DNA of 64,000 nt, from assembly GCA_963706955.1 (NCBI GenBank), contig CAVPOC010000005.1, positions 96,001 through 160,000 on the forward strand. The letters are read 5' to 3'. The DNA is from an uncultured Verrucomicrobiae bacterium. Its GTDB lineage: Bacteria > Verrucomicrobiota > Verrucomicrobiia > Chthoniobacterales > Terrimicrobiaceae. Shown here one piece after another: positions 9,287 through 49,207 of the stretch; within the stretch, counting starts at the first letter, position 1, and every line of letters starts with the position of its first letter. The notes beneath the pieces are model-generated. The model worked only from the letters and a program-made list of their open reading frames with translations, was not told where the DNA came from and made no database searches. Both the position numbers and the translations under genes were made by a program.

Positions 9287-9769
9287 ATGAAGAAAATAAC
9301 TCATTTCGCATCATTCCTCTGTGCGATTCTGCTGCTGACGCAGGCTCCTCTGCACTCAGCCGAACAGAAAACCATTGTCGCCGTCGCTTCCGACGCAGGG
9401 CAGTTCAACACGCTTGTCACTGCTATCAAGGCTGCGGGATTGGTGGAAACTCTGAACGGAAAAGGGCCATTCACGGTCTTTGCACCCACCGACGAAGCTT
9501 TTGCCAAATTGCCAAAAGGCACCGTCGAGGATCTGCTCAAGCCGGAAAATAAGGAGCGTCTGGTAGCCGTTCTTACCTACCATGTCGTCCCGGGCAAGAT
9601 CATGGCATCCGATGTGGTCACCACCGATGCCAAGACGGTAAATGGTAAGAAACTTCCGATCAAGGCGGACGCCGGAAAGGTGGAAGTAGGGAAGGCGAAC
9701 GTCGTGAAGGCGGATGTTCCGGCCAGCAATGGCGTCATCCACGTGGTCGACGGAGTACTCATTCCCTAG
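9287..9769 (+). CDS. Secreted fasciclin (FAS1) domain protein
   Basis: Signal peptide; FTVFAPTDEAF, LTYHVV and SNGVIHVVD motifs. Confidence 0.93.
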   Translation: MKKITHFASFLCAILLLTQAPLHSAEQKTIVAVASDAGQFNTLVTAIKAAGLVETLNGKGPFTVFAPTDEAFAKLPKGTVEDLLKPENKERLVAVLTYHVVPGKIMASDVVTTDAKTVNGKKLPIKADAGKVEVGKANVVKADVPASNGVIHVVDGVLIP

Positions 9770-9954
9770 CCACGAATGCTTTGTGTGCTGCGGGTGAACG
9801 CCTTCGCCCGCGGCACGCAACCCTTCTCCCCCCAAATTCTCCGAATTTGATCCCTGTTTTGGGGGCTAATCATTGCCCTCTACCGAACAAGATATCCAGC
9901 TCAGTCCCGAAGACTCGCCGCATCCAGCAACAAACAGCGACAAGGTCGCCTTTT

Positions 9955-14281: not shown

Positions 14282-15958
14282 GTGACAAAGAAGCGCATCC
14301 TTATTCTTGGCGGCGGATTCGGCGGCGTTTACGTCGCAGTGCATCTCGGACGGATCCTCTCCCGAGAAGAGCTTGAACGAACCGAGATCGCCCTGGTCAA
14401 TCGAGAAAACTATATCGTCTTCCAGCCGCTGCTTCCGGAAGTAATCTCGGGCTCCGTCGAGCTCAACCATGTCATTTCTCCGATTCGACGCATGGCGCCG
14501 CGGACGCGCCTTTACACCCGTGACATCGAGTCGATAGATCCCGTCGCACGAACCGTCACTCTCACCCCGGGCATCCGGCCGACGACCCTGATTCTCGATT
14601 ACGATCAGTTGGTCATCGCCATGGGAACCCGGCTAGATCACTCGAAGATTCCCGGAATGCGCGAACATGCCAGTCCATTCAAGTATCTTGGAGACGCACT
14701 TTACCTGCGCAATCAGCTGGTGCGGATGTTGGAGGAAGCGGAGGCCGAGAGCGATCCGGAACGCCGCAAAGGGCTTCTTACGTTCGTCGTGGCCGGCGGC
14801 GGATTTTCTGGGGTCGAGTGCATAGCGGAAATGAACGACTTTTTGCGCCAAGCTGTCCGCGCCTACCACAACATCACAGAGGCCGATTTGCGGCTGATTT
14901 TGCTGCAGCGCGGCGAACGGATTCTTCCCGAGGTAACGGCTTCTCTGGCCGCTTTCGCCCATCGTCTGCTGGTCGGCCGGGGCGTGGAAATCCGGCTCGG
15001 TGCTAGTCTGCGGGCCGTTACCGCGAATGCCGTAGTCGTGGAAGACCGGACGCAACGGATGGAAACCATCTCCACGCGCACAGCTGTCGCCACGGTGCCG
15101 GCAGGACCTCATCCAATCCTCACTCAACTGCCCATCCCGCAGGATAAAGGCCGAATCGTCGTCGATCAAACGACCGAGGTCCCTGGCTGGCCCGGGATGT
15201 GGGCGATCGGGGATTGTGCCGCGATTAAGCAGGTCGATGGAAACATCTCACCTCCAACCGCGCAACACGCCCTCCGCCAGGCCAAGACCTGCGCCCAAAA
15301 TATTGCGGCGGTGATGCGCGGCACGAAGAAAACTAACTTCGCCTTCACAGGACTTGGAAAACTTGGCTCGCTCGGAAGGCGCTCTGCCGTGGCGGAAATT
15401 CTTGGCCTCCATTTTAAGGGGCTCTTCGCCTGGCTGCTTTGGCGCGGCGTCTACGTGACGAAATTTCCGGGTTTAGACGGTCAGCTGCGCCTGATCGCCG
15501 ACTGGATCTTGGACGTTTTTCTTCCACGAGACATCACGCAGCTTCGGTTATTTAATGATGAGGCCGTCCATCGGGAGCACTTTGAGACCGGAGAGCGCGT
15601 CTTCTCGAGCGGCGATTTTGGCGATAAAGTTTATTTCATGGTTAAGGGAGAAGCGGTCGTCGAGCGCGAAGGTCTTCACGTGGCGACCCTCGGCTGCGGC
15701 GACGTTTTCGGCGAAGCAGCTCTCATCTCCAATCAGCCGCGAAATGCAACAATTCGTGCCATCACGCCTATCGATACGGTCGTCGTTTCGCGACAAGCTT
15801 TCCAACAATTATTGATGCATCTACCGGGACTCAATGAGACGATGCAGCAGTTGATGTCTGGCCGGCTTAAACAGGGACAAGATCTGGCCGGCCTGATGGC
15901 AGAGGTAGGTTCGCAAGGCGACCGAGGAGCCAACCCCGCCAATTCCGCTCAGGGTTGA
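14282..15958 (+). CDS. NDH-2-type FAD/NAD oxidoreductase fused to a C-terminal cNMP-binding domain
   Basis: GGGFGG, GGGFSGVE, AIGDCA and PPTAQHA. C-terminal FGEAAL...PRNATIRA. Confidence 0.88.
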   Translation: MTKKRILILGGGFGGVYVAVHLGRILSREELERTEIALVNRENYIVFQPLLPEVISGSVELNHVISPIRRMAPRTRLYTRDIESIDPVARTVTLTPGIRPTTLILDYDQLVIAMGTRLDHSKIPGMREHASPFKYLGDALYLRNQLVRMLEEAEAESDPERRKGLLTFVVAGGGFSGVECIAEMNDFLRQAVRAYHNITEADLRLILLQRGERILPEVTASLAAFAHRLLVGRGVEIRLGASLRAVTANAVVVEDRTQRMETISTRTAVATVPAGPHPILTQLPIPQDKGRIVVDQTTEVPGWPGMWAIGDCAAIKQVDGNISPPTAQHALRQAKTCAQNIAAVMRGTKKTNFAFTGLGKLGSLGRRSAVAEILGLHFKGLFAWLLWRGVYVTKFPGLDGQLRLIADWILDVFLPRDITQLRLFNDEAVHREHFETGERVFSSGDFGDKVYFMVKGEAVVEREGLHVATLGCGDVFGEAALISNQPRNATIRAITPIDTVVVSRQAFQQLLMHLPGLNETMQQLMSGRLKQGQDLAGLMAEVGSQGDRGANPANSAQG

Positions 15959-16008: not shown

Positions 16009-17043
16009 TCAGCCGTCGATTCTTGATGTTTCCGGGTTCGGCTTGTTCCAGATGCGCTGCCAAATCTTTCCGAGACGCGAGCGGTCCTCGAACGCCCAGT
16101 GGAGACGTTTGACCGGTATAGGTCGCCAGTTGCCTTTCTCGTCGATTTCCGCGACGACGTACCGGAAGACGTAATCCGGTTCAGATCCCATTCGCAGGTC
16201 GGAAAGCACCAACCGGCCATCGTGCTGCTCTGCCTTTAAAAATCCATGAGTAAACCAGGTAAGTCGCTGGACCGAAGGAAGCGCGGAGACCTTCTGCAAG
16301 GTGACGTGATCACTTGCATACGAGCGAAAACTCATCGGCGTGCTGTCAGCGACGAGGGAGCGTTCACCTTCGAGGAAACCATTTGGTGTTAGCACTACGA
16401 CACGCCAAAGCAGTGTGGTAAACGGCATAGGCACTGAGAAATGAGCTGAGCCCTGTAGACCCTTGCTGGTCAGGGCCGTTCTCATGTCCCGTTCGACGAT
16501 CGCCTTTGCCGTCAGAGACCACCCGAGGTAAATCAAACCGAGCGCGATGCCCGCGGCCAAGCACCAAGTCGCGGAGCGACGCGCTCGTAACCACCAGGCG
16601 GCCAGACAAGCCGCGAGCAGCGGAACGGTGTAAATCGGGTCGATGATAAATATGCTCGCCACCATTGTCGGTCGGGCCGGCAGCGGCCAGATGAGCTGCG
16701 TGCCGTAGACAGTGAAGGCGTCGAGAAGTGGATGAGTCAGCAGGGCCAGTTCGATTGCCCAAAACCAGCGTCCTGGCGCTTCCCGGACGGGTCCCCACGT
16801 TCGCCGCAGCACTAACCAGAGAAGCCACCCGGTCACCGCCAATACCAGCAAGGAATGCGACGGACCTCGATGCCAGGTAACGAAAGCAACTGCATCAGCC
16901 CGAGAAAGGAGCAGCGGAATAATGTCAAGATCGGGTAGCGTGCCAAGGACCGCGCCTGCCGCCAATGCCGCACGACGATGCTGCCTCGGGGCGATCACCG
17001 CCGCCGTCGCGCCTCCCAAGGCAATTTGCGTCAACGAATCCAT
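16009..17043 (-). CDS. Inner-membrane metal-dependent hydrolase
   Basis: MDSLTQ, LPDLD, HRGPSHS and THPLLDAFTVYGT. Confidence 0.85.
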   Translation of the reverse strand: MDSLTQIALGGATAAVIAPRQHRRAALAAGAVLGTLPDLDIIPLLLSRADAVAFVTWHRGPSHSLLVLAVTGWLLWLVLRRTWGPVREAPGRWFWAIELALLTHPLLDAFTVYGTQLIWPLPARPTMVASIFIIDPIYTVPLLAACLAAWWLRARRSATWCLAAGIALGLIYLGWSLTAKAIVERDMRTALTSKGLQGSAHFSVPMPFTTLLWRVVVLTPNGFLEGERSLVADSTPMSFRSYASDHVTLQKVSALPSVQRLTWFTHGFLKAEQHDGRLVLSDLRMGSEPDYVFRYVVAEIDEKGNWRPIPVKRLHWAFEDRSRLGKIWQRIWNKPNPETSRIDG

Positions 17044-27210: not shown

Positions 27211-27339
27211 TTATCTCCAAGTGTAATCCCGAAAGAGTCGTCTGGCCGTTGCCCCTTTTGGGTCCTTGCTTGGCTTCAGGTCCTTGACTTGAATTGTGCT
27301 CTTTTCTTTCTTCGGCTGTTTGTTTGATTTGGCTTTCAT
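27211..27339 (-). CDS. Putative precursor peptide A6 (42 aa)
   Basis: MKAKSNKQPKKEKSTIQVKDLKPSKDPKGA-TARRLFRDYTWR. The tail follows an AAAAGGGG run, so its frame is sensitive to homopolymer error. Confidence 0.7.
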   Translation of the reverse strand: MKAKSNKQPKKEKSTIQVKDLKPSKDPKGATARRLFRDYTWR

Positions 27340-27502
27340 TCTGGCGGTTTGATGGTGGCTTGAGGCCGTTAATAAAATCCTGCTAACGAGAGGGACCGTG
27401 TGCTGAACTCCCGGTCGGAATAATTCGCCGATGTTCAGCTTAGCTCATCAGGTCCCGCAGGAACGGCTTAATGGGCCGACTTATCGAACTTAGGCAATAA
27501 CG

Positions 27503-27661
27503 TTATGCGAAACCACCGCCGGCTCCAAGTCGGCGAAGAGGTCTACCAGGCATCTCCCGACCCCGTATTCCTTGCCCCTTCGAGTCCTTAGTTGGCTCCA
27601 GGTCCTTGAGTTGAACAGTGGGGTTAACCTTCTTGGGTTGTTTCGATGACATTTCTTTCAT
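27503..27661 (-). CDS. Putative precursor peptide A5 (52 aa)
   Basis: MKEMSSKQPKKVNPTVQLKDLEPTKDSKGQ-GIRGREMPGRPLRRLGAGGGFA. Confidence 0.8.
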   Translation of the reverse strand: MKEMSSKQPKKVNPTVQLKDLEPTKDSKGQGIRGREMPGRPLRRLGAGGGFA

Positions 27662-27705
27662 GTCGCTGGTGCGTTTGCGGCTTCTAAGACATCACTGCGC
27701 ATGCC

Positions 27706-27858
27706 CTAGAATGCCAAAGGGCGAAGGGGTCCGGGACGACGCATGGGTAACTCCCGACCAGGTCGGAGTTGCCCCTTTGAATCCTTGGTAGGTTGAAGGT
27801 CTTTGAGTTCGACACCGGGTTTGTCTTTTTTGGACTGTTTCGTTGGTTTCTCTTTCAT
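27706..27858 (-). CDS. Putative precursor peptide A4 (50 aa)
   Basis: MKEKPTKQSKKDKPGVELKDLQPTKDSKGQ-LRPGRELPMRRPGPLRPLAF. Confidence 0.82.
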   Translation of the reverse strand: MKEKPTKQSKKDKPGVELKDLQPTKDSKGQLRPGRELPMRRPGPLRPLAF

Positions 27859-27980
27859 GCTTGTGGTTCGTTCTGTTGTTGTTCTTGCGACTTAGCGCCA
27901 AAACACCGTTTGGCGCCTGCTTTCGCTTGTTCTTACAAAAGTTTGCTGAGTCGGACTTGATTCCTGGGTGATGTCTTCGC
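27855..27980 (-). pseudogene. Degenerate family-B peptide copy B4
   Basis: AKTSPRNQVRLSKLL*EQAKAGAKRCFGAKSQEQQQNEPQA* aligns with B1. It has an internal TAA, and its stop overlaps the A4 start. Confidence 0.6.
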
Positions 27981-28100
27981 CTGGAAGAGTGCACTAACAA
28001 CCGCGACGTCCCGGTCGAGGATCCCCTTGCGAGCTCGGCGTCCGTCAGCAAATCGCGAGCGAGACAGAGGCGGCAACGTTCAATAAGCGGGATCTCGACC

Positions 28101-28250
28101 TTACAACCGCGAAAGACCTCCGGGAATTCGAAGAATATCACGAGAAGCCATCAGTCGCTTTTGCCCTTGGGCATCTTTGATCGGCTTGAGGTCCTTAATT
28201 TGGACGCCGGGTTTTTCTTTTTTGGACTGGTTCGTCGATTTTTCTTTCAT
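28101..28250 (-). CDS. Putative precursor peptide A3 (49 aa)
   Basis: MKEKSTNQSKKEKPGVQIKDLKPIKDAQGQ-KRLMASRDILRIPGGLSRL. Confidence 0.82.
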   Translation of the reverse strand: MKEKSTNQSKKEKPGVQIKDLKPIKDAQGQKRLMASRDILRIPGGLSRL

Positions 28251-28372
28251 GGTTGTGGTTTGTTCTACTGTTGTTCTCGCGATTTCAAACGACGCGAAGT
28301 TGTGTTGCCGAGCTTAGTGTCCCCCTTGGGTGTAGAATCGTGGAATCGATTTGACTTGCCGATGACCCTTCT
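28247..28372 (-). pseudogene. Degenerate family-B peptide copy B3
   Basis: SSASQI / RFHDSTPKGDTKLG...KSREQQ*NKPQP* with a frameshift and an internal stop. Same position as B1, upstream of an A copy. Confidence 0.45.
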
Positions 28373-28502
28373 CGTCCCGGCGGCCGATCCTCGGTTCGCC
28401 GAGGCGTGTTAACTAATAACGGCTACCGTTTAAAAAAATGGCCCCCAGACTCGCCCACTTCGTAGCGACATTGAACGACTGACCGCTGAGTCGCGATCGA
28501 CC

Positions 28503-28676
28503 TCAACGGCGCGGAAAGCGTTCTCCAGGAAGTTGAATTATATCTGGAGAAAGCATTCTCATATCTTGAGAAGGCATCAGTCGCTTCTGTCCTTGGGCAT
28601 CTTTGGTCGGCTTGAGGTCCTTGATTTGAACAGCGGGTTTGTCTTTCTTGGACTGCTTGGATGATTTCTCTTTCAT
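28503..28676 (-). CDS. Putative precursor peptide A2 (57 aa)
   Basis: MKEKSSKQSKKDKPAVQIKDLKPTKDAQGQ-KRLMPSQDMRMLSPDIIQLPGERFPRR. Confidence 0.82.
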   Translation of the reverse strand: MKEKSSKQSKKDKPAVQIKDLKPTKDAQGQKRLMPSQDMRMLSPDIIQLPGERFPRR

Positions 28677-28789
28677 GCGTTTGGTTGGTTCTTTTTTGAC
28701 TTCTGCGGCTTGGCTTCCAAAGTCGGTCCGGCGTGCGGCTTCACCTCGCTCTCGGGAGGAGATTCGTTGAGCCGAATGTGTTTGGCCAA
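28673..28789 (-). CDS. Divergent family-B peptide B2 (TTG start, 38 aa)
   Basis: LAKHIRLNESPPESEVKPHAGPTLEAKPQKSKKNQPNA. Stop overlaps the A2 ATG (ATGA). Confidence 0.5.
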   Translation of the reverse strand: MAKHIRLNESPPESEVKPHAGPTLEAKPQKSKKNQPNA

Positions 28790-28932
28790 TGAGCTTTTCT
28801 CTTCACGAAAGGCGTATAGGCACTAAGCTGTGGTCGTTAACGTAGCTGCGACTATGGATACGCGTTTGCAACTCGTCCACGCCGCCTCAACAGCAACGAA
28901 TAGCCTTTAGGCGCGGTTCGACCTTTAACCCC

Positions 28933-29073
28933 TCAGAAGCCTCCAGGTCTCCGAAAAATCTCTTCAGAGGCCATCATTCGCCTCTGCCCCTGAGCATCCT
29001 TGGTTGGCTTGAGGTCTTTGATTTGGACAGCTGGTTTATCTTTCTTGGACTGCTTGGATGATTTCTCTTTCAT
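28933..29073 (-). CDS. Putative precursor peptide A1 (46 aa)
   Basis: MKEKSSKQSKKDKPAVQIKDLKPTKDAQGQ-RRMMASEEIFRRPGGF. Confidence 0.82.
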   Translation of the reverse strand: MKEKSSKQSKKDKPAVQIKDLKPTKDAQGQRRMMASEEIFRRPGGF

Positions 29074-29075
29074 GC

Positions 29076-29183
29076 TTACGGTTCACTCTTTTTTGGGTTT
29101 TGCGGCTTGGCACCAAACACCATTCGGCGGCCCGCTTTGGCGTCCTTCTTGGGTATGAGATCGTCGAGCCGAATCTGATTCAT
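29076..29183 (-). CDS. Family-B peptide B1 (35 aa)
   Basis: MNQIRLDDLIPKKDAKAG-RRMVFGAKPQNPKKSEP. Shares DLxPxKDxx with the A leaders. Confidence 0.72.
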   Translation of the reverse strand: MNQIRLDDLIPKKDAKAGRRMVFGAKPQNPKKSEP

Positions 29184-29265
29184 CGGCGACGTTTTCTCGG
29201 CGCGGGCAGGGGTCGAGCGATGCTTGGGCGGTTGATCACTCACGTTTAAGCCTCGGACGTCTAAG

Positions 29266-29281
29266 ATCAAATTTCATGCCA
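29266..29281 (-). promoter_or_regulatory. Candidate sigma-54 (-24/-12) promoter for the peptide array
   Basis: TGGCATGAAATTTGAT against consensus TGGCAC-N5-TTGCW: correct spacing, GA in place of GC at -12. It lies between the activator gene and B1. Confidence 0.55.
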
Positions 29282-29414
29282 CCTCGCGCGCGGACCCAGC
29301 AAAATAGGGAAAAGGCTAATTCCAAGGCGCTTAATCGAAGCACGCCTGCAAAGGACAAACGATTCTACTGGTAACGAATCAGCGCAGCCCTGCTTCGAAA
29401 TAGCTCCGGTCGCT

Positions 29415-30399
29415 TTAGTTTGGAGCCAGGCCGCGCAGATGCCGCGCAAGTTTCCCTCTCGAAATCCGGAGGATCCGGGCAGTTTCGCGTTGGTTGCAAT
29501 CCGACATCTCGTAGACGCGACGGACGTGCTCACGGATAATGGCGTCAAGAGCAAACTGGTTTGCAGCTTCCTCGTGCGCGGCAGTTCCCTTGGCACCATT
29601 TAGTGGTCGCTCCACTGCGAGATCGCGCTCAAACGAGACGTGCTTAGGGTGAACCACGTTGCCATCACAAAAGAGCGCAACGCTACGCATGGTATGGTAG
29701 AGTTCGCGTAGGTTTCCCGGCCAGGCATGATTCAGCAGCATCTCCATGGCCGCAGGATGAATGGATGTGATGCGATTTCCCGATCTCAGCCGCTGCGGCC
29801 TCAAGTTCCATGGCGATCAAAGAGGGCAAATCTTCCTGGCGCTCGCACAGCGAAGGGATGAACAGCACGAGGCCATCAAGGCGATGATAGAGATCCTCGC
29901 GAAATTTTCCCGCGGCAATACGCTCCCGCAGCGAGCAATTCGTTGCGGAGATGATGCGGACATTCGAACGGTGCAGGCGCTCACCTCCGACGCGCTCGAA
30001 CTCGCCATACTCCACCGCGCGCAGGATCTTCGCTTGGGCAAGTGGGCTCATGTCCGCAATTTCATCGAGGAAAAGCGTGCCGGTGTGAGCCGTCTCAAAC
30101 TTTCCTCGATGCACCTGCATTGCTCCGGTGAACGCGCCGCGTTCGTGGCCGAAAAGCTCGCTTTCGAGCAGCGTGTCACTCATTGAGGATGCGTTGAAGG
30201 AAACAAATGGTCCGTGCGCTCGCGCCGAAGAATTGTGAATAGCATGCGCCAGCAGGGTCTTGCCCGTTCCGGTCCGGCCGAGAATGAGCACCGGAGCGTC
30301 GCTTTTGGCAGCAAAGGATGCCAGTTGGAGACACCGTCGCATGACGGGATTACGCGAAGTGAGTTCCTCCAAACGCAGATCGGTAATGGTCCGCATCAT
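29415..30399 (-). CDS. Sigma-54-dependent activator (AAA+ plus HTH, no receiver domain), frameshift near 29775
   Basis: GRTGTGKT, ESELFGHERGAFTGA, LFLDEI and FREDLYHRL, then in the second frame WPGNLREL and NQRETARILRISR. Confidence 0.88.
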
Positions 30400-30403
30400 G
30401 AGG

Positions 30404-31597
30404 TCACGGTTGAAGATTCTCCCGCAGCTGGCGGATCGGCTCAAAGGCATGCTCGATCAAAGTGCGACTGCCGACGGTGACACGCGCCTCACCCTGCATG
30501 CCAACTCGCAAAGGGCGCTCTTCGCTTTTCACGCGAATGAAGGGCCGATCGAGCGACGCCGCGGCGGTGAACTGTCGGCTGCGCTCGGAGGCAACAGCCG
30601 CGGCGCTGATCCATTTTAGCTCGCCTGTCACCGTGCCGTAACGCTGATACGGAAATGCATCGAAGAACAATCTGACATGCTGCCCGATGGTCAGCCGCGC
30701 GAGGCCAGATTCACGAACGACCAAGCGGGCGTATGGGATGGCATCGATCGGGGCAAGTTGGCAAAGTTCCGCCCCCGCTGGCACGACGCTGCCCGCGTTT
30801 CGCTGGGCAAGCGAGATGACCACCGCATCATAGGGTGCGCGGATCGACAGGAGGTCGTTGCGCGTGCCAAGGAGATCGCGTTGCAGAGCATCGATCTGCA
30901 ACTTGAGTTTCTGCACATCCGCGATCTCCTCAGTTCGACGACGCGCCCGCTCGGTATCGAGCTTGCTGCGTTCGAGTTTCAGTGCCTCCAAGGATCTTCC
31001 GGCCACATGGAAATCTTTCTCGGATTCAGCGAGGTCCAACTGCACGCGTGTCAATTCGAGGTGCGAGACGCCGCCCATCCGCGCGAGTCTGTCGAGCCGC
31101 TCCACCAAGTCGCGACTCGTTGCGGTATGTGTCCCGCGAAACTCCAGCTCGCGTTCGAACTGAGCGATCTCCTCGCTTTTGATTCTTCGCTGGGCGATAT
31201 GGGCCGCCTCCATTTTGACGATCGTGTCCTCTTGGGTTCGGAGGTCCTGTGTCAACGTCTGAAGCTGCGTATGTTTCGCGCGAACCTCATCGGAGCGGAG
31301 GACGAAGAGTTCCGCGCCGGCGGCGACCTCTTGCGCCTCGACAACGCGAACGTCGCTGACGACACCGTGATAGGGCGCTTGGATCGGATCGGCACCATGT
31401 CTTGGCGCGAGCACAAATTGACAGCGCACCGTCTCCGGAACCTGAACGACAAGGGCCGCGATGAGCGCAACAACGAAGATTAGTGCCAATAGCCACGCCG
31501 TGCCCGAGACGATCAAAGGCGGTGGCTCGACCGGAAGCATTTCAGCCTGCTCATCTGACTCGCGTTTGCTCTGCGGGAGGGTCGAATTCATGAGCAA
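30404..31597 (-). CDS. HlyD family membrane fusion protein
   Basis: N-terminal TM, coiled coil, IRAPYDAVV, FDAFPYQRYG and LRVGM. Confidence 0.92.
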   Translation of the reverse strand: MLMNSTLPQSKRESDEQAEMLPVEPPPLIVSGTAWLLALIFVVALIAALVVQVPETVRCQFVLAPRHGADPIQAPYHGVVSDVRVVEAQEVAAGAELFVLRSDEVRAKHTQLQTLTQDLRTQEDTIVKMEAAHIAQRRIKSEEIAQFERELEFRGTHTATSRDLVERLDRLARMGGVSHLELTRVQLDLAESEKDFHVAGRSLEALKLERSKLDTERARRRTEEIADVQKLKLQIDALQRDLLGTRNDLLSIRAPYDAVVISLAQRNAGSVVPAGAELCQLAPIDAIPYARLVVRESGLARLTIGQHVRLFFDAFPYQRYGTVTGELKWISAAAVASERSRQFTAAASLDRPFIRVKSEERPLRVGMQGEARVTVGSRTLIEHAFEPIRQLRENLQP

Positions 31598-31600
31598 AAT

Positions 31601-34600
31601 TCAGATACCCAACTGTTGGCTGGAGAGATGGAAATAGAGACCGCGCCTTGCCATGAGCCCATCGTGTGTGCCGGTCTCGACAATTTCGCCTTTCTCCAAG
31701 ACGACGATCATATCGGCCTCGCGAATGGTGCTCAGGCGATGGGCGATGACAATGCAGGTCCGCCCAACCATCATGCGACTGAGATTGTCCTGGATCGCGC
31801 GTTCGGATTCGGTATCAAGCGCGCTGGTCGCCTCGTCGAAAATGAGAATTGGTGGGTCTGTATAGAGTGCGCGCGCGATGGCGACGCGTTGTTTCTGTCC
31901 GCCGGATAGGGCGATGCCAGTCTCACCGATGCTCGTCTCGTAGCCCATGGGCATCCGCATGATGAAGTCGTGAGCATTGGCGACCTGGGCACACCAAAGG
32001 ACGCGGTCGAAGTCCGGCTCGGGGTCGCCGAAGGCGATGTTGCGGGAGATGCTTTCACTAAAAATATGATTATCCTGGAGAACGATTCCGATTTGCCGGC
32101 GCACATCACGAAAGTTGAGCTCCTTGAGGTCCCGCCGGTCGAAGAGGATCGTCCCTGTGGTGGGCTCGATTAAACTAGCGAGCAGCTTTACGAGCGTAGT
32201 CTTCCCGCTGCCACTCCGGCCGACGATCGCGACGATCTTGCCGGGAACAAACTCGATGCTAATGCCTTTTAAGATGTCAGGCGCCTCGGGGCCGCCATAT
32301 TTAAAGCCAACGCCGCGCAATTCGATATGTCCTTCCAAAGAATGCACAGGGATGAGGCGCGCGCGATCGCTCCCCTGCTCCGGCTCCGGCTCGAAGATGT
32401 CGTTAAGACGATCGAGAAGCACAGCGATCCATTGCCACTGATCCCAGATGCCAAGTGTCCGTAAAATGGCCGCATACGCCATCGCGGTCAGCGAACTGAA
32501 GGCCACAAATGCGCCCACTGTAAGTTGTCCCTCCATGACCTTACTGGCGCCCACCCACAGGAAAAGCGCCGTTGAGAGCAATCCAATTGTTTGAATCACT
32601 CCGTCATAGGACATGAGAATGAAGTTCGAACGAAACATCTTTCGCAAGACGCTTAGATATTCGTTGAGCATCGAATTGCGAAAGCTGAGCTCGGCGGCGG
32701 ACGCCTTGACGGCTTCAATTCCTTTGATGGCGTCAATTTGTTGCGAGGCGTACTTTCCCTGACTCTCCTCAATGTCAAAGAAGAGCGGGCGCAGCACTTT
32801 GGCCGACCAGATCATCAGGAGCGTGTAAAGAGGCATCGTGATCATGAAGACGCCGGCTAGAGCCGGGCTGTAGACCAGCATCATGCCAAGCGCGCCAGCA
32901 AGCGTGATGATGGAGAAAAGACCGCCAATGCCATGCTCGACTGCGAAAAGTCTTATTTCCCGTGCGCCATTGAGGCGACGTTGGATGTCGCCGGTCCGTC
33001 GACTGTGAAAATATGACATCGGCAGGGAAAGCAGCTGACGAGTGAGAAAGTCGAGTAGAGTCGCGTCTATCCGGACCGCCGCGAAGCTGAGGAAATATTG
33101 CTGGAGAAGGTTGGCAAGCTGGGTGAAGACGATGGCTGCTCCCATCCCGATCAAAACCACATGGAGGAGATCGGCGTTGTTTTCGACGACCACCCGATCC
33201 AAGACAATCTGCGTGAAGACTGGGAAGAGAAGCTGCAAAAAGGTGACGATGCCCGCGAGGATTAGCGCCTGCAGGAGGATCATTCGGTGCTGCCGGAACA
33301 GGGGTGCGAAACGTCTTACGGTTGATTGTGCTTCCGGAGCCTGTGCGAATGCCTCGGTATAGTCGAACAGGGCGGTGTAACCCGACCACTTGGCGGCGAA
33401 TTCCGAGCGAGAGATGCGCCGAAGACCCGCCGCAGGATCAGCCACTCTCACATACGAAGGCGTCACATCGTAGAGGACCATCCAGTGGTTCCCTTCCCAA
33501 TGGACGATCGCCGGCATCGGAAGGTTCGGAAGATTCCGTGGGGAAACCTTGAGCATGCGGGCGGCAAGCCCCAGTTCGCCGGCTGCATGGCAGATTGCCT
33601 TCAGGCTGGTGCCGTCCCGTGACGTGTGGCAAAGCTCGCGGATACGCGAAAGACTTACCTTGCGACCGAAGTGCCGGCAAATCATTGCCAGGCTGGCTGC
33701 ACCACAGTCCATCTCGTCGATCTGCTGCACATGCGGTATGCGGCGGATGCGTCTCTTGTCGCGGGGACGGAACAGGCCTTCCCTGTCGTCTGAGGGCTCC
33801 GGCTGCTCCTCATCCAACGCAACCTTGTCCTGCACCCGCGTCTCAGCCGGAAGCAGCTCTTCCGCAAAATCAAGCGGAACACGCGCAACGACATCGGCTT
33901 GATACTGCGCAAGACGTTCCTCAAGTAATTTGCGAAACTCGGGAAACTGTTCTTTCATCTCGCGCACACTTTCGGGCTGCAGCGCGAGCAGGCGGCAATC
34001 CGCGACTGCTTCGACCGAGGCGGCACGTTGTGACCCATTCAAAATGGAGAGCTCACCGAAAAAGTCGCCGTCTCTGTAAAAAGCCACATTCTTCTGACGG
34101 CCGTTCGATTGCGTGAAAATTCGAACTCGCCCCGACTCGATGACGAAGAGAGGTCCGGCAGGATCGCCCTCACGAAGGATGGTCGCGCCGCGCGCATAAG
34201 CGACCGGCGTCATCTTCTCGACCAGTGTCCTGAGAGCGCGTTCTGGAAGTCGCCCGAAGTTGCTAAACTCATGCAGAAAGCCATGCAAAGTGCGATGCCG
34301 CGAGGTCAGCTCGACCGCGGTCTTCAAGTCGGGATGCTCAGTCAACAATGAGAGAAAGTCGGCCCGGTTGAGCCGGAGAGCGTCCACCGCAGTACTGCAC
34401 CGGACAGTGGCATTTCGGCAACCGCCCGCGATGAGGGCCTGTTCGCCAAACTGGTCGCCCGGGCGAAGAACGGCCAAGGCAACCTCTTGACCCTCCTTGA
34501 TCTCCTTGACGACGCGAGCCCGGCCGTTGACGAGGATGTAACAGGCATCCGCTTCGTCTCCTTCTCTGACGATCACGTCGCCGAATTCGAAATGCTCCTC

Positions 34601-34693
34601 CTGGAGCACGGCACGCAGGCAGTCAGCCCGATCTTCCGGCAGAAAGCGGAAAAAAGACGAGCGATCCAAGACTTCGTTTTGGTGTTGCGTCAT
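31601..34693 (-). CDS. Peptidase-containing ABC transporter: 2x cNMP-binding + C39 peptidase + TMD + NBD
   Basis: FGEQAL..RNATVR and FFGELSI..RAASV (cNMP); QQIDEMDCGAASL and HWEGNHW (C39); GRSGSGKT, LSGGQKQR and DEATSALD. Start ATG 34693 overlaps the upstream stop. Confidence 0.95.
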   Translation of the reverse strand: MTQHQNEVLDRSSFFRFLPEDRADCLRAVLQEEHFEFGDVIVREGDEADACYILVNGRARVVKEIKEGQEVALAVLRPGDQFGEQALIAGGCRNATVRCSTAVDALRLNRADFLSLLTEHPDLKTAVELTSRHRTLHGFLHEFSNFGRLPERALRTLVEKMTPVAYARGATILREGDPAGPLFVIESGRVRIFTQSNGRQKNVAFYRDGDFFGELSILNGSQRAASVEAVADCRLLALQPESVREMKEQFPEFRKLLEERLAQYQADVVARVPLDFAEELLPAETRVQDKVALDEEQPEPSDDREGLFRPRDKRRIRRIPHVQQIDEMDCGAASLAMICRHFGRKVSLSRIRELCHTSRDGTSLKAICHAAGELGLAARMLKVSPRNLPNLPMPAIVHWEGNHWMVLYDVTPSYVRVADPAAGLRRISRSEFAAKWSGYTALFDYTEAFAQAPEAQSTVRRFAPLFRQHRMILLQALILAGIVTFLQLLFPVFTQIVLDRVVVENNADLLHVVLIGMGAAIVFTQLANLLQQYFLSFAAVRIDATLLDFLTRQLLSLPMSYFHSRRTGDIQRRLNGAREIRLFAVEHGIGGLFSIITLAGALGMMLVYSPALAGVFMITMPLYTLLMIWSAKVLRPLFFDIEESQGKYASQQIDAIKGIEAVKASAAELSFRNSMLNEYLSVLRKMFRSNFILMSYDGVIQTIGLLSTALFLWVGASKVMEGQLTVGAFVAFSSLTAMAYAAILRTLGIWDQWQWIAVLLDRLNDIFEPEPEQGSDRARLIPVHSLEGHIELRGVGFKYGGPEAPDILKGISIEFVPGKIVAIVGRSGSGKTTLVKLLASLIEPTTGTILFDRRDLKELNFRDVRRQIGIVLQDNHIFSESISRNIAFGDPEPDFDRVLWCAQVANAHDFIMRMPMGYETSIGETGIALSGGQKQRVAIARALYTDPPILIFDEATSALDTESERAIQDNLSRMMVGRTCIVIAHRLSTIREADMIVVLEKGEIVETGTHDGLMARRGLYFHLSSQQLGI

Positions 34694-35763
34694 GGGGCGC
34701 CAATCGGCGGCAAAATCCATCGCACGAAACGCCCGGCCAGTTCGGAAAAATAGCGCTCCACGATCTTCGCTTCCACACGATGCCGCACTTCATCATCGGT
34801 CAGATCGAAGTCTGTCTTCCCCAGCAATCGGCAAAGCTCGAAGTGCCCTTCGTGTTCGATCGGATCGAGGATTTCTCCGGGCCTGGCGCTGAGAAGCCTC
34901 GGCTGTAGATCTTCCGGCAGGTCCTCGTAGAAGACACGGCTGCGCCGATAAGGATAGCCTGCACCAGAGGCGACCTCTTCCATCGGCTCGCCGTCTGCGC
35001 TCACGCATTCGAAGACCTCACATGCCGCATCGCGCGAGTCGACTTCAATGAGCTCCAGATCGAATCTCATCAAAGGCATTCTCAAGGTGTGCAGCACCCG
35101 CTCGCGCGAGCCAACACTAAGGATCTCCTCGCGCTGGCCTCGGAAGAGGGCTTCCAGTTCCAACATTTCGTTGAACCAAACAACCTCCCGCCCAAGCCCG
35201 AGCAGCCACCTGTCGAGCCCGTCGCCGCCCAGTCCACTGCGTTCCAAGAATCGCGCGCGTTCGCTTTCGATCGCCTTTGCGGTCGGCGCATGGCCCACCC
35301 CCTCGCGTGCCGCGATGCGCCACGCTAACGCAGTTGCGAGGCGATCAAAGTCCCCGGTAAACAGCAGGTCGATCTGCAGTAAATGACGCAGATCCGCCGG
35401 CGCGAACGCATACTCTTCCACTTGCCGGTCTGGGCTGGCGGGAGCCGAAGCAGATACCTGCTCTCGGATGAGGAAATCGCTGAAGTCGTCGAGACTCAGG
35501 CCACGTTCGTCCAGCCATCGCTCGGTTTCCTCAGCACTGATCAGATCACGGTTGATGCGGAACTCCTCTGAGCGGGCCTGCAGGTCCGCTTCGTCCGTTT
35601 CACGACCGCTCGCCCCGCTTTTCACATAGTCGCACACGCGCTTCCAACTCTTTTCGAGGTCACCCCGGAAATGAGCCGCGCAAATGACGTCGTCCATGGT
35701 AATCGTCTTGTTTCCAACATGAAATACCCCAAGATCTCGAACGCCCAACTCTGTGCTAATCAT
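34690..35763 (-). CDS. PpiC/SurA-like foldase-type protein (putative peptide maturation protein)
   Basis: Acidic helical N-terminal part (FRINRDLISAEETERWLDERGLSLDDF) and a rotamase-like C-terminal part (EDLPEDLQPRLLSARPGEILDP). Translationally coupled to the transporter. Confidence 0.6.
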   Translation of the reverse strand: MISTELGVRDLGVFHVGNKTITMDDVICAAHFRGDLEKSWKRVCDYVKSGASGRETDEADLQARSEEFRINRDLISAEETERWLDERGLSLDDFSDFLIREQVSASAPASPDRQVEEYAFAPADLRHLLQIDLLFTGDFDRLATALAWRIAAREGVGHAPTAKAIESERARFLERSGLGGDGLDRWLLGLGREVVWFNEMLELEALFRGQREEILSVGSRERVLHTLRMPLMRFDLELIEVDSRDAACEVFECVSADGEPMEEVASGAGYPYRRSRVFYEDLPEDLQPRLLSARPGEILDPIEHEGHFELCRLLGKTDFDLTDDEVRHRVEAKIVERYFSELAGRFVRWILPPIGAP

Positions 35764-46320: not shown

Positions 46321-47925
46321 ATGCCCCCCCTTGATGTGACCGGTTCAAACGGACCGGAGACCGATCGTGAGGTCATCCTGGAGATGAGCCGGATTACCAA
46401 GAAGTTTGGCTCGACTCAGGTCTTGACCGAAGTGGACTTCGCTCTGCGAAGGGGCGAGATCCATGCTTTGATGGGCGAGAACGGCGCAGGTAAGTCGACC
46501 TTGATGAAGATCGCGGCCGGGCTAATCGACGATTTTGAGGGCGAGATTGCGGTCGATGGCAGCCCCGTGCACCTGAACTCTCCGCGGGCGGCGACGCGGG
46601 CGGGCATCGCGATGATTCAACAGGAACTGAGCTTGGTGCCGGAGCTAGCCGTGGACGAGAACATCTTTCTCGGCCAGGAGAAACGAGGTGGCCTATTTTT
46701 TTTGGTAGATCGGCACCGCCAGATCGAAGCGACGCGGGCGGTTCTCGCGCCGTTGGATTTCCAGGCGCGTATCGATCAGCCGGTGACCCGGCTGCGCGTC
46801 GGTGAACAGCAATTGGTCGAGATCGGCAAAGCGCTCGTATCGAAAGCCCGGATCTTGATAATGGACGAACCGACCTCGGCATTATCGATTCACGAGACGG
46901 AGCGTTTATTTGCGGTAATCCGACGGCTCTCCGGCGAGGGTGTTGCCATCGCTTACATTTCTCACCGCATGGAAGAGGTCTTCGCCCTGGCCCATCGGGT
47001 TACTGTTCTCCGCGATGGACGCTTGATCGGCACGTTGGCCGCCCGGGAAGCTAACCGACGGGAAGTGATCCGCATGATGGTGGGCCGCGAACTGCAGGAG
47101 GTTCTCGCCTCCGGCAAAGCCGACGCGTCTACTCGGCAACCGGTTCTCCAAGTTCGCAACCTCCGGCTGGAGCACCCAGCCCCGACCCCGAGCCGGCCGA
47201 TGCTAGTCGATCGGGTTTCGTTCTCCGTCGCAGCTGGCGAAGTGCTCGGATTAGCCGGATTGCTCGGGGCCGGGCGAACGGAAACCTTGGAAGTGCTTTT
47301 CGGCCTCCATCCGGAATTCGCCGACGGCGAAATCTTCGTCAATGGCCGGCGAGTGTCGGTGCGAAATCCGATCGAAGCCAAGCAGCACGGGATTGCATTA
47401 GTGACCGAGGACCGCAAGCGTGACGGTCTGATCCTTGGCGCCGGCATCGATCGAAATGCCGAGCTGACGGTGATGCGTTCGGTGTCGCGTTTCGGAATCG
47501 TCTCCCGACGCGACGAGCGCGAGGTTGCCCTGCGGACCATCCAGCAACTCGGCATTCACGCTAGAGGCCCAGAGCAGGTCGCCGGCACGCTCAGCGGTGG
47601 TAACCAACAGAAGCTGGTTATCGGAAAATGGCTTCAGGCTGCTCCAAGAATTCTGCTTCTTGACGAGCCAACCCGCGGGATCGATGTGGGCGCTAAGGCA
47701 GACGTTTATCGCCTGATCCAACAACTCGCCGAGGAGGGCCTGGCGATCGTGCTCGTATCGTCGGAATTGCCCGAGCTAATCCTGTTGAGCGACCATATCC
47801 TTGTCTTGCGAGAAGGTCTCCCAACGGCACGGTTGAATCGATCGGATTTTCTCCATGAGACCATTCTGGAATACGCTTCGCCCGGCGGGCCGGTCCAACC
47901 CGAATTTGCGGAGGTAGCCGCATGA
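46321..47925 (+). CDS. Sugar ABC transporter ATP-binding protein (RbsA-like)
   Basis: GENGAGKS, DEPT, LSGGNQQK and DEPTRGIDVGAK. Confidence 0.95.
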   Translation: MPPLDVTGSNGPETDREVILEMSRITKKFGSTQVLTEVDFALRRGEIHALMGENGAGKSTLMKIAAGLIDDFEGEIAVDGSPVHLNSPRAATRAGIAMIQQELSLVPELAVDENIFLGQEKRGGLFFLVDRHRQIEATRAVLAPLDFQARIDQPVTRLRVGEQQLVEIGKALVSKARILIMDEPTSALSIHETERLFAVIRRLSGEGVAIAYISHRMEEVFALAHRVTVLRDGRLIGTLAAREANRREVIRMMVGRELQEVLASGKADASTRQPVLQVRNLRLEHPAPTPSRPMLVDRVSFSVAAGEVLGLAGLLGAGRTETLEVLFGLHPEFADGEIFVNGRRVSVRNPIEAKQHGIALVTEDRKRDGLILGAGIDRNAELTVMRSVSRFGIVSRRDEREVALRTIQQLGIHARGPEQVAGTLSGGNQQKLVIGKWLQAAPRILLLDEPTRGIDVGAKADVYRLIQQLAEEGLAIVLVSSELPELILLSDHILVLREGLPTARLNRSDFLHETILEYASPGGPVQPEFAEVAA

Positions 47926-49207
47926 ACACGATGGTCGGGCGCATCTTCAAGTTTATTTTGACGACCAAGCTTTTCTGGGGTCTGGCTGTCCTTTACGCGA
48001 CCGGGGTGATCCTGTCGCCGGTAAACAATAAAGGAATTAACATCTTCCTGAGTCCGGGTAACCAAGCCGATGTGCTGCGACAGGTTTCCAACAACGGCAT
48101 CATCGCTGTCGGGATGACACTGGTGATTCTCACCGGTGGAATCGATCTTTCGGTCGGCTCAATGATGGCGCTTGGGTTCAGTTATTTGCGCCATGCTTCT
48201 GACTCAGCAGGGATGGACGAACGCATCGTTGTTTTCCATTCCGATCCTGGCCGTGATGTGCGTCCTGCTGTGTCTATACTTGATCCCTATGGTTGCGATG
48301 AATATGCCCGGCGCGGCGCATCGCAGCAGCGAAAAACCGCCCACCAAGATCGTCGCTGCGGGGGCTGTGGTGGGTATTATTCTGGCCGCTCTCGCGGTTG
48401 CCTGGACGATCGGACAGCTCGAGCCGAAATTTGGTGTTCTCGGCGTGCTCATTACCGTGCCGGCTGTGGGGTTTGCGCTAGGTGCCTTGAACGGCGTCAT
48501 CATCGCCAAGGGCCGCCTCCAACCGTTCATCGTCACCCTCGCGATGATGGTTGCGATTTTGGGACTGGCGCGATTGCTGGCCGGCCAGGATGCGGCGGTT
48601 TATCCCGTCTATACGGGTTCGAATGCGACCGAAGACTTTGACGTGTTGCGGGCGCTGGTCTTTAACGTTGTGCCTGTCCCTGGGATTTTCTTTCTGCTGG
48701 CCGTTTTCCTCTTCGGCTTTGTTTTAAAGGTAAGTACTTTCGGCCGGTACGTCTATGCCATTGGAGGCAACGAACAAGCAGCGCGACTCGCCGGTATCCA
48801 GGTCGATCATGTCAAGATCGCCGTCTACGCGATCTCCGGGAATGCTGGCAGCTTTGGCCGGTGTTCTCTACACCGCACAGTACCGCCAGGGAAAGCCAGA
48901 CGCCGGCGTCGGAGCAGAGCTGGATGCCATCGCAGCCGTGGTGATTGGCGGGACTAACCTCATGGGCGGCAGAGGATCCATGACTGGCACGCTCGTCGGC
49001 GTGCTGATCTTCGGCTTTCTGGGCAACATTCTGCTGCTTAAAAATATTGACAGCAACACGCAGCTGGTCCTCAAAGGGCTGATCATCCTTGGAGCCGTGC
49101 TGCTTCAGGAAGGGCAGATGGCTGGTTGGCTGAGACGAATTCGACCACGCGTCGACAAGACGCCCGAGAAAAAGCCCGCTGTGGAAGCAGTCGGGACTCA
49201 ACGATGA
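47922..49207 (+). CDS. Sugar ABC transporter permease (frameshifts near 48172 and 48840)
   Basis: GGIDLSVGS, PFIVTL, GRYVYAIGGNE and ELDAIAAVVIGG, spread over three frames. Confidence 0.85.

Follow-up and report, generated by a model that had tools for sequence, protein, structure and literature searches.

Within the 64,000-nt stretch of DNA analyzed here (contig CAVPOC010000005.1, positions 96,001 to 160,000, from an uncultured Verrucomicrobiae bacterium; hereafter the window), the genes between positions 27211 and 35763 appear to form a self-contained cassette for making, processing, and exporting ribosomal peptides with a double-glycine-type leader. We put the probability of this reading at about 0.75. 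A preliminary description had proposed a multi-precursor peptide export system at this place, and the proposal was supported by a hidden Markov model (HMM) of the leaders, by purifying selection, and by synteny among relatives. All cassette coordinates are positions of the window, and the cassette genes are all on its minus strand; the genome comprises 4.16 Mb in 15 contigs and is 92.5% complete. The components, with the evidence for each in brackets, were as follows; aa, amino acids.

34690..35763, minus strand: PrsA/SurA-like cytoplasmic protein ("PpiCrel"), first cassette gene, 357 aa (open reading frame (ORF), fold, synteny)
31601..34720, minus strand: peptidase-containing ATP-binding cassette (ABC) transporter (PCAT) exporter with two N-terminal cyclic nucleotide monophosphate (cNMP)-binding domains, 1039 aa (Pfam, NCBIfam, structure matches)
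30404..31597, minus strand: HlyD-family membrane fusion (adaptor) protein (Pfam, NCBIfam)
29415..30399, minus strand: sigma-54 enhancer-binding protein without a sensor domain, split by an extra base at 29773 (Pfam, orthologues)
29266..29281, minus strand: sigma-54-type -24/-12 promoter-like element, TGGCATGAAATTTGAT (conserved block and pattern counts)
29076..29243, minus strand: peptide 0, seventh precursor, 55 aa, GTG start, shared leader motif and conserved core (orthologues, codon-position entropy)
28933..29073, minus strand: variable precursor 1, 46 aa as assembled (ORF, leader repeat, selection)
28503..28676, minus strand: variable precursor 2, 57 aa (ORF, leader repeat, selection)
28101..28250, minus strand: variable precursor 3, 49 aa (ORF, leader repeat, selection)
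27706..27858, minus strand: variable precursor 4, 50 aa (ORF, leader repeat, selection)
27503..27661, minus strand: variable precursor 5, 52 aa (ORF, leader repeat, selection)
27211..27339, minus strand: precursor 6, 42 aa, core conserved within the genus (TARRLFRDYTWR) (ORF, orthologue comparison)

The preliminary description had recognized precursors 1 to 6 as six small ORFs of 42-57 aa; all were present at their positions on the minus strand, and their 30-residue Lys-rich leader and tails agreed with the sequence as quoted there. Peptide 0 and the promoter-like element, both upstream of the six-ORF array, had not been part of that description. Peptide 0 sits between the activator and precursor 1, and its leader is of the D-L-x-P-x-K-D-x-x-G type with an AG ending in the window. 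Purifying selection on the leaders, named earlier as a test, was found: pooled over the 15 pairs of the six leaders, the proportion of synonymous differences (pS) was 0.69 and that of non-synonymous differences (pN) 0.15. Variable sites at codon positions 1, 2, and 3 numbered 12, 8, and 26 (of 30 each), and leaders 1 and 2 were identical as proteins with 9 synonymous and 0 non-synonymous changes. This codon-position pattern ruled out chance ORFs as an explanation of the small ORFs. Two cores were also under selection. The entropy of peptide 0 was 0.41, 0.30, and 1.05 at the three codon positions (26 codons, 47 sequences), its core beginning with RQLLFGATDIN in most families, and the 12-codon core of precursor 6 differed from the orthologue at locus L020 by 5 synonymous and 0 non-synonymous changes. 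The core of precursor 5 begins much as do precursor cores in three other members of the genus.

The four larger genes proposed earlier (a 357-aa protein, a cNMP-cNMP-C39 exporter, HlyD, and a sigma-54 activator) were borne out by searches of NCBIfam and Pfam. In the exporter, two stretches of cNMP_binding (PF00027; 159 bits), Peptidase_C39 (PF03412; 125.5 bits, cut-off 22), ABC_membrane, and ABC_tran were detected, and structures of PCAT1, HlyB, and ComA matched residues ~327-1035. The Cys-bearing DCG, HW, and ADPA stretches of the C39 domain, which we take to be its catalytic triad, were conserved in the window and 70 relatives. The HlyD protein scored above the cut-offs of HlyD_3 (PF13437; 66.2 bits) and HlyD_D23 (PF16576; 43.1 bits) and below that of TIGR01843 (132 bits, cut-off 208.65); its orthologues begin at an ATG two codons inside the start used in the window. 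With a predicted C39-ABC exporter and HlyD adaptor, the cassette has the machinery of the double-glycine/PCAT family. It is likened to NHLP/Nif11 systems (TIGR03796/TIGR03797/TIGR03794) by TIGR03796, the highest-scoring NCBIfam model for the exporter (545.7 bits, below the cut-off of 853.3), and by a weak HlyD match to TIGR03794 (43.1 bits, below 156.2), but it differs from them in scoring below these cut-offs, in having a single ABC gene, and in lacking an NHLP or Nif11 leader. By score, the cassette is neither an NHLP/Nif11 system nor a TIGR04500 system. As a separate observation, a protein with an adenylate/guanylate cyclase domain (11970-14207, plus strand) and an oxidoreductase of the NDH-2 type that carries a cNMP-binding domain (14282-15958, plus strand) are encoded in the window, 17-20 kb from the cassette; cyclic-nucleotide signaling genes are thus nearby.

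The cassette was found in at least 202 species-level genomes by a scan with the PrsA/SurA-like gene (one genome per species), and the best 80 of these 202 relatives were examined. All 80 were labelled Verrucomicrobiota, Chthoniobacterales, Spartobacteria, or Udaeobacter, save two short contigs binned as Terriglobia/Terriglobales. The PrsA/SurA-like gene was followed by the exporter in 79 of the 80 loci, the 80th contig stopping earlier. The activator was present in 66, and 12 of the remaining 14 contigs stop before its place; only L079 and L097 have no activator there. The order PrsA/SurA-like protein, exporter, HlyD, and activator was identical in five genomes from three families of the order. 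Of 61 genomes searched among relatives, the window's own included, 7 carry the PrsA/SurA-like gene. Within the genus its presence is patchy: 4 of the 18 other genomes have it, and in one of these four only a 100-aa remnant is left. In the congener G010 the cassette has been lost, and a ~100-aa remnant of the PrsA/SurA-like gene (L019, 8156-8458) lies between the same hydrolase and SpeE-like membrane genes that flank the cassette in the window. These two flanking genes, tried as cassette parts, were rejected because they are adjacent in G010 despite the loss of the cassette.

Leader-like ORFs were searched for beside the homologous transporters with an HMM of the six leaders, a check that had been suggested earlier, and were found there. 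The search space comprised 33,218 stop-to-stop frames of at least 20 aa on both strands of the 80 loci (1.28 Mb), and a locus was eligible when the activator was present with at least 1200 nt beyond it (n = 52). At E ≤ 1e-3, the HMM gave 48 matches. Of these, 47 were on the cassette strand, at most 4.5 kb downstream of the activator; the remaining one adjoins the L097 exporter, and none lay away from an exporter locus. Matches were obtained in 31 of the 52 eligible loci without iteration, and in 51 of the 52 after one iteration (83 matches, 77 of them downstream of the activator). Orthologues of peptide 0 were found in 51 of 52 eligible loci. Thirty eligible loci had one leader copy, 17 had two, and four had three; the window, with six, exceeds all 52.

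Other arrangements were also observed. At L097, a 21-kb locus of a Chthoniobacter sp. metagenome-assembled genome without HlyD or activator, three tandem precursors with related cores (12175-12496, minus strand) lie on the opposite strand between the PrsA/SurA-like gene and the exporter, and one further precursor (16893-16920, plus strand) follows the exporter. Some loci carry an extra, divergently transcribed double-glycine precursor with another N-terminus just upstream of the PrsA/SurA-like gene (L078, ~9744-9798; L083, ~9825; L099, ~9771-9825; minus strand). Two database proteins of ~100 aa (P0192 and P0204) contain two leader-plus-core units in a single reading frame, which points to a precursor fusion or to read-through of two genes.

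The array of the window has the structure of a tandem duplication of a ~400-nt unit consisting of peptide 0 and a variable precursor. Over the 86-nt leader region, the six DNA copies were 67-73% identical to the reference copy, and a search of the whole genome found six copies of this repeat, all in the array. Units 2-4 retain degraded remnants of peptide 0 and a degenerate promoter place: one degraded copy lies upstream of precursor 2 (~28673-28801), with aligned parts in units 3 and 4. These decayed copies show that the array grew through duplication of the whole peptide-0-plus-precursor unit. The promoter-like element is kept in the first unit only, and no extra copy was found before precursors 2-6.

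The leader had been described earlier as unlike both NHLP/Nif11 leaders and the classic LSxxELxxIxGG leader. The former statement held, since the precursors matched no NCBIfam family at E ≤ 10. The latter was correct for the hydrophobic spacing, which is non-classical, but not for the type, because the leader appears to belong to the double-glycine class, with relatives ending in KDAKGG. Its form is V-x-V-x-D-L-x-P-x-K-D-A-K-G-G, in which Pro occupies -8, Leu -10, and Ala or Val -4, and outside the window's genus its end is a canonical Gly-Gly (VKVRDLKPSKDAKGG). Classical leaders have hydrophobic residues at -4, -7, and -12 (Leu-12, Glu-8, and Leu-7), according to the part of PMC6363468 consulted. 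The cassette leader differs from classical PCAT leaders in being Lys-rich, in having Pro at -8, in lacking Leu-12/Glu-8/Leu-7, and in the GQ, GA, or AG of the genus. The known PCAT/AMS systems (ComA-ComC, CvaAB-colicin V, and PCAT1 of C. thermocellum) share with the cassette a C39-ABC fusion, an HlyD-type adaptor, adjoining precursors, and, in most members, a Gly-Gly leader; the cassette differs from them in its two extra cNMP-type domains, its PrsA/SurA-like partner gene, probable sigma-54 control, and the absence of an immunity gene. When eight precursors were compared with NCBIfam and Pfam at E ≤ 10, nothing was found beyond a chance match to Ribosomal_L4 (E 1.1). The earlier label "undescribed" therefore stands as far as these databases go, and no description of the cassette was found in the literature searched, a search whose scope excluded subscription journals and supplements.

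The activator was identified by Sigma54_activat (PF00158; 207.8 bits) in its N-terminal piece and AAA_lid_14 in its C-terminal piece, and GAFTGA is present in the translation. Its identity was thus as proposed earlier, but its status as a single ORF was not, since it occupies two frames, 29683-30450 and 29415-29804. The start is an ATG at 30399, five bases past the HlyD stop. In five orthologues the frame is unbroken (327-340 aa), and no sensory domain precedes their AAA+ module. Sensor-less sigma-54 activators of the PspF type are known, and the cassette activator resembles them: its AAA+ sigma-54 interaction domain is joined to a DNA-binding end and preceded by no more than ~25 residues. It is, however, no orthologue of PspF (TIGR02974, 216.6 bits, below the cut-off of 443.55) and has no PspA-like partner.

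An alignment of 35 upstream regions contained a single sharply conserved block. The pattern TGGCAY-N6-TG was found in 40 of the 52 eligible loci at a fixed place ~555 nt past the end of the activator's AAA+ match, where its density was 1.54 per kb versus 0.022 per kb elsewhere in the same loci (~70-fold). TGGCA and the spacing were invariant among the 40 pattern-bearing loci, and the consensus, TGGCATGAATG-n-TG-t-TAATA, fits a sigma-54 promoter in the -24 element and spacing. Between 26900 and 29500, no sigma-70-like promoter was found on the minus strand, and no terminator-like site. In our reading, this is a sigma-54 promoter whose -12 part is unusual. The genome encodes three other full-length sigma-54 activators.

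Several observations weighed against this reading of the cassette, and they concern the promoter, the activator, the leader end, the gene content, the sampling, and the nature of the cores. At -12 the element reads TGT or TGA, with TTGAT in the window, rather than TGC. The strict pattern TGGCAC-N4-6-TTGC was absent from the locus; its one match in the window (15746-15761) is unrelated to the locus and of a kind that arose by chance in 31 of 100 shuffles, and scoring scans demanding GC or C at -12 gave nothing consistent upstream of the peptides. The element, which is followed by TAATA, could be another promoter type. The only genome match to rpoN consisted of two adjoining pieces (G000:C5:65-1050; L100 and L101) that scored 106 and 76.5 bits, where the cut-off is 277; it is partial, with a frame break and one TAG inside a piece, and lies at a contig end. 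The sigma-54 gene is thus incompletely assembled or broken in this genome.

The activator of the window itself is broken by one extra base at 29773 in comparison with three orthologues, and the window's seven precursors end their leaders in GQ (five), GA (one), and AG (one). It might be supposed from the insertion, from the replaced GG, and from the loss of the cassette in the congener with its 100-aa remnant that the cassette is decaying in this genome, so that the peptides are no longer made or processed. We consider this improbable. The GQ/GA state is common to all four cassette-bearing genomes of the genus, whose leaders end in GQ, GA, AQ, or AG, and it is under purifying selection. A DNA contig of run X5, from a near-identical population in another study, has one base fewer at 29775, which restores the activator frame. 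Other single-base problems occur in the assembly. In runs X1, X5, and X19 (two DNA libraries and one RNA library), one more base was present behind 28939, which would make precursor 1 49 aa long with a tail matching precursor 3 at 6 of 9 places. Elsewhere in the window, two overlapping plus-strand ORFs that differ in frame, 47922-48641 and 48172-48957, align with BPD_transp_2 at profile positions 4-43 and 37-188, a probable frame break in a permease. The breaks at 29773, at 28939, and in the permease suggest single-base assembly errors or strain differences, and the activator frameshift may be an assembly error.

For the leader end, the window's genus departs from the rule of GG, GA, or GS; Gln at -1 is not among the double-glycine motifs given in the part of PMC6363468 consulted, and the leader does not follow the hydrophobic -4/-7/-12 consensus. 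Processing at GQ, GA, or AG in this genus is therefore putative. In the C39 domain (residues 331-449), eight columns were fixed differently in the four GQ/GA genomes from at least 90% of the 70 GG relatives, a difference confounded with descent. One of the eight is Ala345, which is Gly in 68 of the 70 and lies six residues past the presumed catalytic Cys.

The cassette has no gene for an immunity protein, receptor, kinase, or outer-membrane channel. Beside the precursors, no immunity gene was found in the cassettes of six genomes, which consist of four large genes and precursors, although unrecognized small ORFs are possible there. The absence of an outer-membrane factor refers to the cassette, the rest of the genome not having been searched for one. 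The related loci were collected through the PrsA/SurA-like gene and are kin rather than independent samples. Regarding expression, parts of the cassette stretch were found in twenty public runs from nine studies, all of soil or rhizosphere. Contigs from RNA libraries (two libraries, two studies) lay on 27968-29092, which covers precursors 1-3, and also matched parts of the activator; each piece showed 0-6 differences. Transcription of the array had been named earlier as a test, and these contigs give a weak hint of it, because assembled contigs carry no strand, ends, or level, and carry-over of DNA is possible; stretches without RNA cover carry no meaning. High depth at 30064-30177 corresponds to a conserved AAA+ motif common to other organisms.

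The PrsA/SurA-like protein had no Pfam match, and its sole NCBIfam match was to TIGR04500 "PpiC_rel_mature" (33.2 bits against a cut-off of 180; residues 55-105). In its AlphaFold model (predicted local distance difference test score, 87.8), the best Foldseek matches were the chaperones PrsA and SurA (E 4e-6 to 1e-4, probability 1.00), and the low TM-scores (0.2-0.4) suggest that the domain arrangement differs from that of PrsA/SurA. The C-terminal part of the model matched isolated parvulin domains (3gpk, PpiD, and Pin1) over ~100-115 columns. As modeled, the protein has a helical chaperone module with an inserted parvulin-like domain. Its peptidyl-prolyl isomerase (PPIase) activity is doubtful because no His was found among the invariant columns of the family alignment. 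The wider family comprised 2170 representatives at E ≤ 1e-3 and 533 at 1e-30; in a sample of 32 representatives, 29 touched TIGR04500 at 26-52 bits and three not at all, and these scores place the family near TIGR04500 but outside it. A predicted complex of the protein with precursor 2 scored 0.43 and one control 0.27, which speaks neither for nor against binding.

The link with TIGR04500 raises the question of whether the precursors are ribosomally made, post-translationally modified peptides (RiPPs), altered before export by an enzyme encoded elsewhere with the PrsA/SurA-like protein as its obligatory partner. MirC, a TIGR04500 protein, is such a partner of the ATP-grasp ligase for rosaritide, a graspetide, both proteins being required and encoded beside a TIGR03796-type PCAT, according to the part of PMC13097080 consulted. 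The same text describes MirC as cytoplasmic, with a SurA-like chaperone fold, and encoded next to a PCAT and precursors, as in the cassette, and its C-domain as not resembling the PPIase domain of Cj1289. TIGR04500 was the only NCBIfam family touched by the PrsA/SurA-like protein and by the 29 representatives, and a TIGR04500 cluster was among the nearest named ESM-Atlas clusters (score 0.96). However, all of these scores are far below the cut-off, and the window protein differs from MirC in lacking an ATP-grasp partner and in keeping a parvulin-like domain in its model. No radical SAM, YcaO, LanM/LanC, or ATP-grasp protein was found among the 47 non-nested ORFs of at least 170 aa in the window, in agreement with the preliminary description, which had recognized no LanM, YcaO, radical SAM, or ATP-grasp gene there; no YcaO or TIGR04187 ATP-grasp protein was found in the 92.5%-complete genome, and across six genomes neither the cassette nor its immediate surroundings contain a conserved modifying enzyme. 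Furthermore, the cores of the peptide family (see below) are almost devoid of Asp (1.7%), Glu (0.5%), and Cys (0.1%), residues needed for graspetide, lanthipeptide, or sactipeptide chemistry. Modification by a remote enzyme is therefore very unlikely in our estimate, and the exported products are most likely unmodified because no modifying enzyme belongs to the cassette.

A leader profile built from 25 precursors retrieved 3194 proteins at E ≤ 1e-3 from 5.8 billion non-redundant sequences. The following core figures refer to the 120 members listed of these 3194. Those of them that bear a name are called "hypothetical protein", save one evidently mislabelled cupin annotation. Core length was 18-76 residues (median 31), G, S, R, A, Q, N, or T made up 74.7% of core residues, His accounted for 5.9%, and 116 of 120 cores were net positive. 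A 4-mer was repeated within the core in 68 of 120, versus 5 of 120 after shuffling; repeat units included AGRTT, GHAAQ, and QGATR, and many cores were His-bearing repeats. The window cores, by contrast, contained Arg at 23%, Gly, Leu, and Pro at 11-12% each, and Met at 7%, with no low-complexity repeats. The "proline-rich" tails of the preliminary description thus hold for this genus, but not for the family at large, in which G/S/R/A/Q/N-rich repeats prevail.

The mature peptides may be competition peptides resembling microcins or bacteriocins, with peptide 0 as a helper or inducer. We favor this role only tentatively, at somewhat less than even odds, and place a non-antagonistic extracellular role behind it and signaling third. 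The hydrophilic, low-complexity cores across the family count among the points against the cassette as read here, and they set the family apart from classical PCAT substrates; the cores of class II bacteriocins, in particular, are amphipathic, unlike these. The same composition would suit peptides that are not weapons but disordered hydrophilic molecules outside the cell or in the periplasm with a physical or chemical role, such as water retention, matrix, or metal binding, in which composition counts over sequence. This is possible, but less probable than competition. The biased, mostly positive, His-bearing, and repeat-rich cores, the absence of an immunity gene or receptor from the cassette, and the size and hypervariability of the family (3194 clusters) are in its favor. 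On the other hand, the cores of peptide 0 and precursor 6 are under purifying selection at the sequence level, the window cores are rich in Arg, Pro, Leu, and Met rather than low-complexity repeats, and the patchy presence in the genus (4 of 18 other genomes) with multi-copy diversification suits antagonism or communication at least equally well.

An autoinducing circuit whose peptides serve as quorum-sensing-type signals (pheromones) is unlikely, and ranks below both of these roles. In 51 of 52 loci the regulated promoter is followed first by peptide 0, with its conserved core, and the layout of ComC/ComAB and of the induction peptides of class II bacteriocins is similar. HetC, a cNMP-C39 exporter, is also thought to export a regulatory peptide (part of PMC10986499 consulted). 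However, the cassette has no sensor kinase or receptor, and its activator has no sensory domain. The hypervariable repeat cores, with slippage-like expansion, also argue against signaling; we know of no pheromones that resemble them.

HetC of Nostoc PCC 7120 has the same domain order as the cassette exporter (cNMP-binding domain, C39 peptidase, and ABC exporter), by which the two were compared. According to the part of PMC10986499 consulted, HetC is needed for heterocyst differentiation, its peptidase is active, and its N-terminal domain, which is required, can bind ppGpp in vitro; that text gives no known substrate and no nearby double-glycine or adaptor gene. In the cassette, on the other hand, candidate substrates and an HlyD gene adjoin the exporter.

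A working order of events can be proposed for the peptide export cassette. The sensor-less sigma-54 activator would drive the -24/-12 promoter just downstream of its own gene, and the transcript would carry peptide 0 with its conserved core, followed by the hypervariable precursors, of which there are six in the window and one to three at other loci. Holding or presenting the precursors is probably the task of the PrsA/SurA-like protein in the cytoplasm, and the C39 domain of the exporter would cut behind the leader, at KDxKGG in most Chthoniobacterales and at GQ, GA, or AG in the window's genus. The ABC part, together with HlyD and an outer-membrane channel encoded elsewhere, would then expel the core. 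The two cNMP-type domains may gate the exporter by a nucleotide signal, as has been proposed for HetC (part of PMC10986499 consulted).

A bolder form of this scheme, which we regard as quite unlikely, is a closed secretion-coupled circuit. The PrsA/SurA-like protein would be both a precursor chaperone and an anti-activator acting on the sensor-less sigma-54 activator, the exporter would be opened by an alarmone or cyclic nucleotide, the peptides would form a new functional class, and the change from GG to GQ/GA would reflect a shift in C39 specificity. Type III secretion chaperones, which couple transcription to export, provide the model. If this were true, transcription would follow export, in a manner of a kind not described for peptide exporters, and the peptides would be neither membrane-active bacteriocins nor classical pheromones, made in quantity by very abundant soil bacteria.

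As far as searched, the export logic of the cassette is known, and the substrate family, the partner protein, and the control are undescribed. Chthoniobacterales, including Candidatus Udaeobacter, are among the most dominant soil bacteria and are largely unexplored (part of PMC7343977 consulted), and the cassette would give a large unexplored set of secreted peptides from these uncultured organisms. It would also give a natural substrate set for HetC-like cNMP-gated PCAT, a class without known substrates in the part of PMC10986499 consulted, and a second setting, free of modifying enzymes, for the SurA-like partner proteins that are essential in the graspetide pathway (part of PMC13097080 consulted). 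Moreover, the contrast of GG with GQ, GA, and AG among related genomes would provide a natural experiment on the cleavage-site specificity of C39 peptidases.

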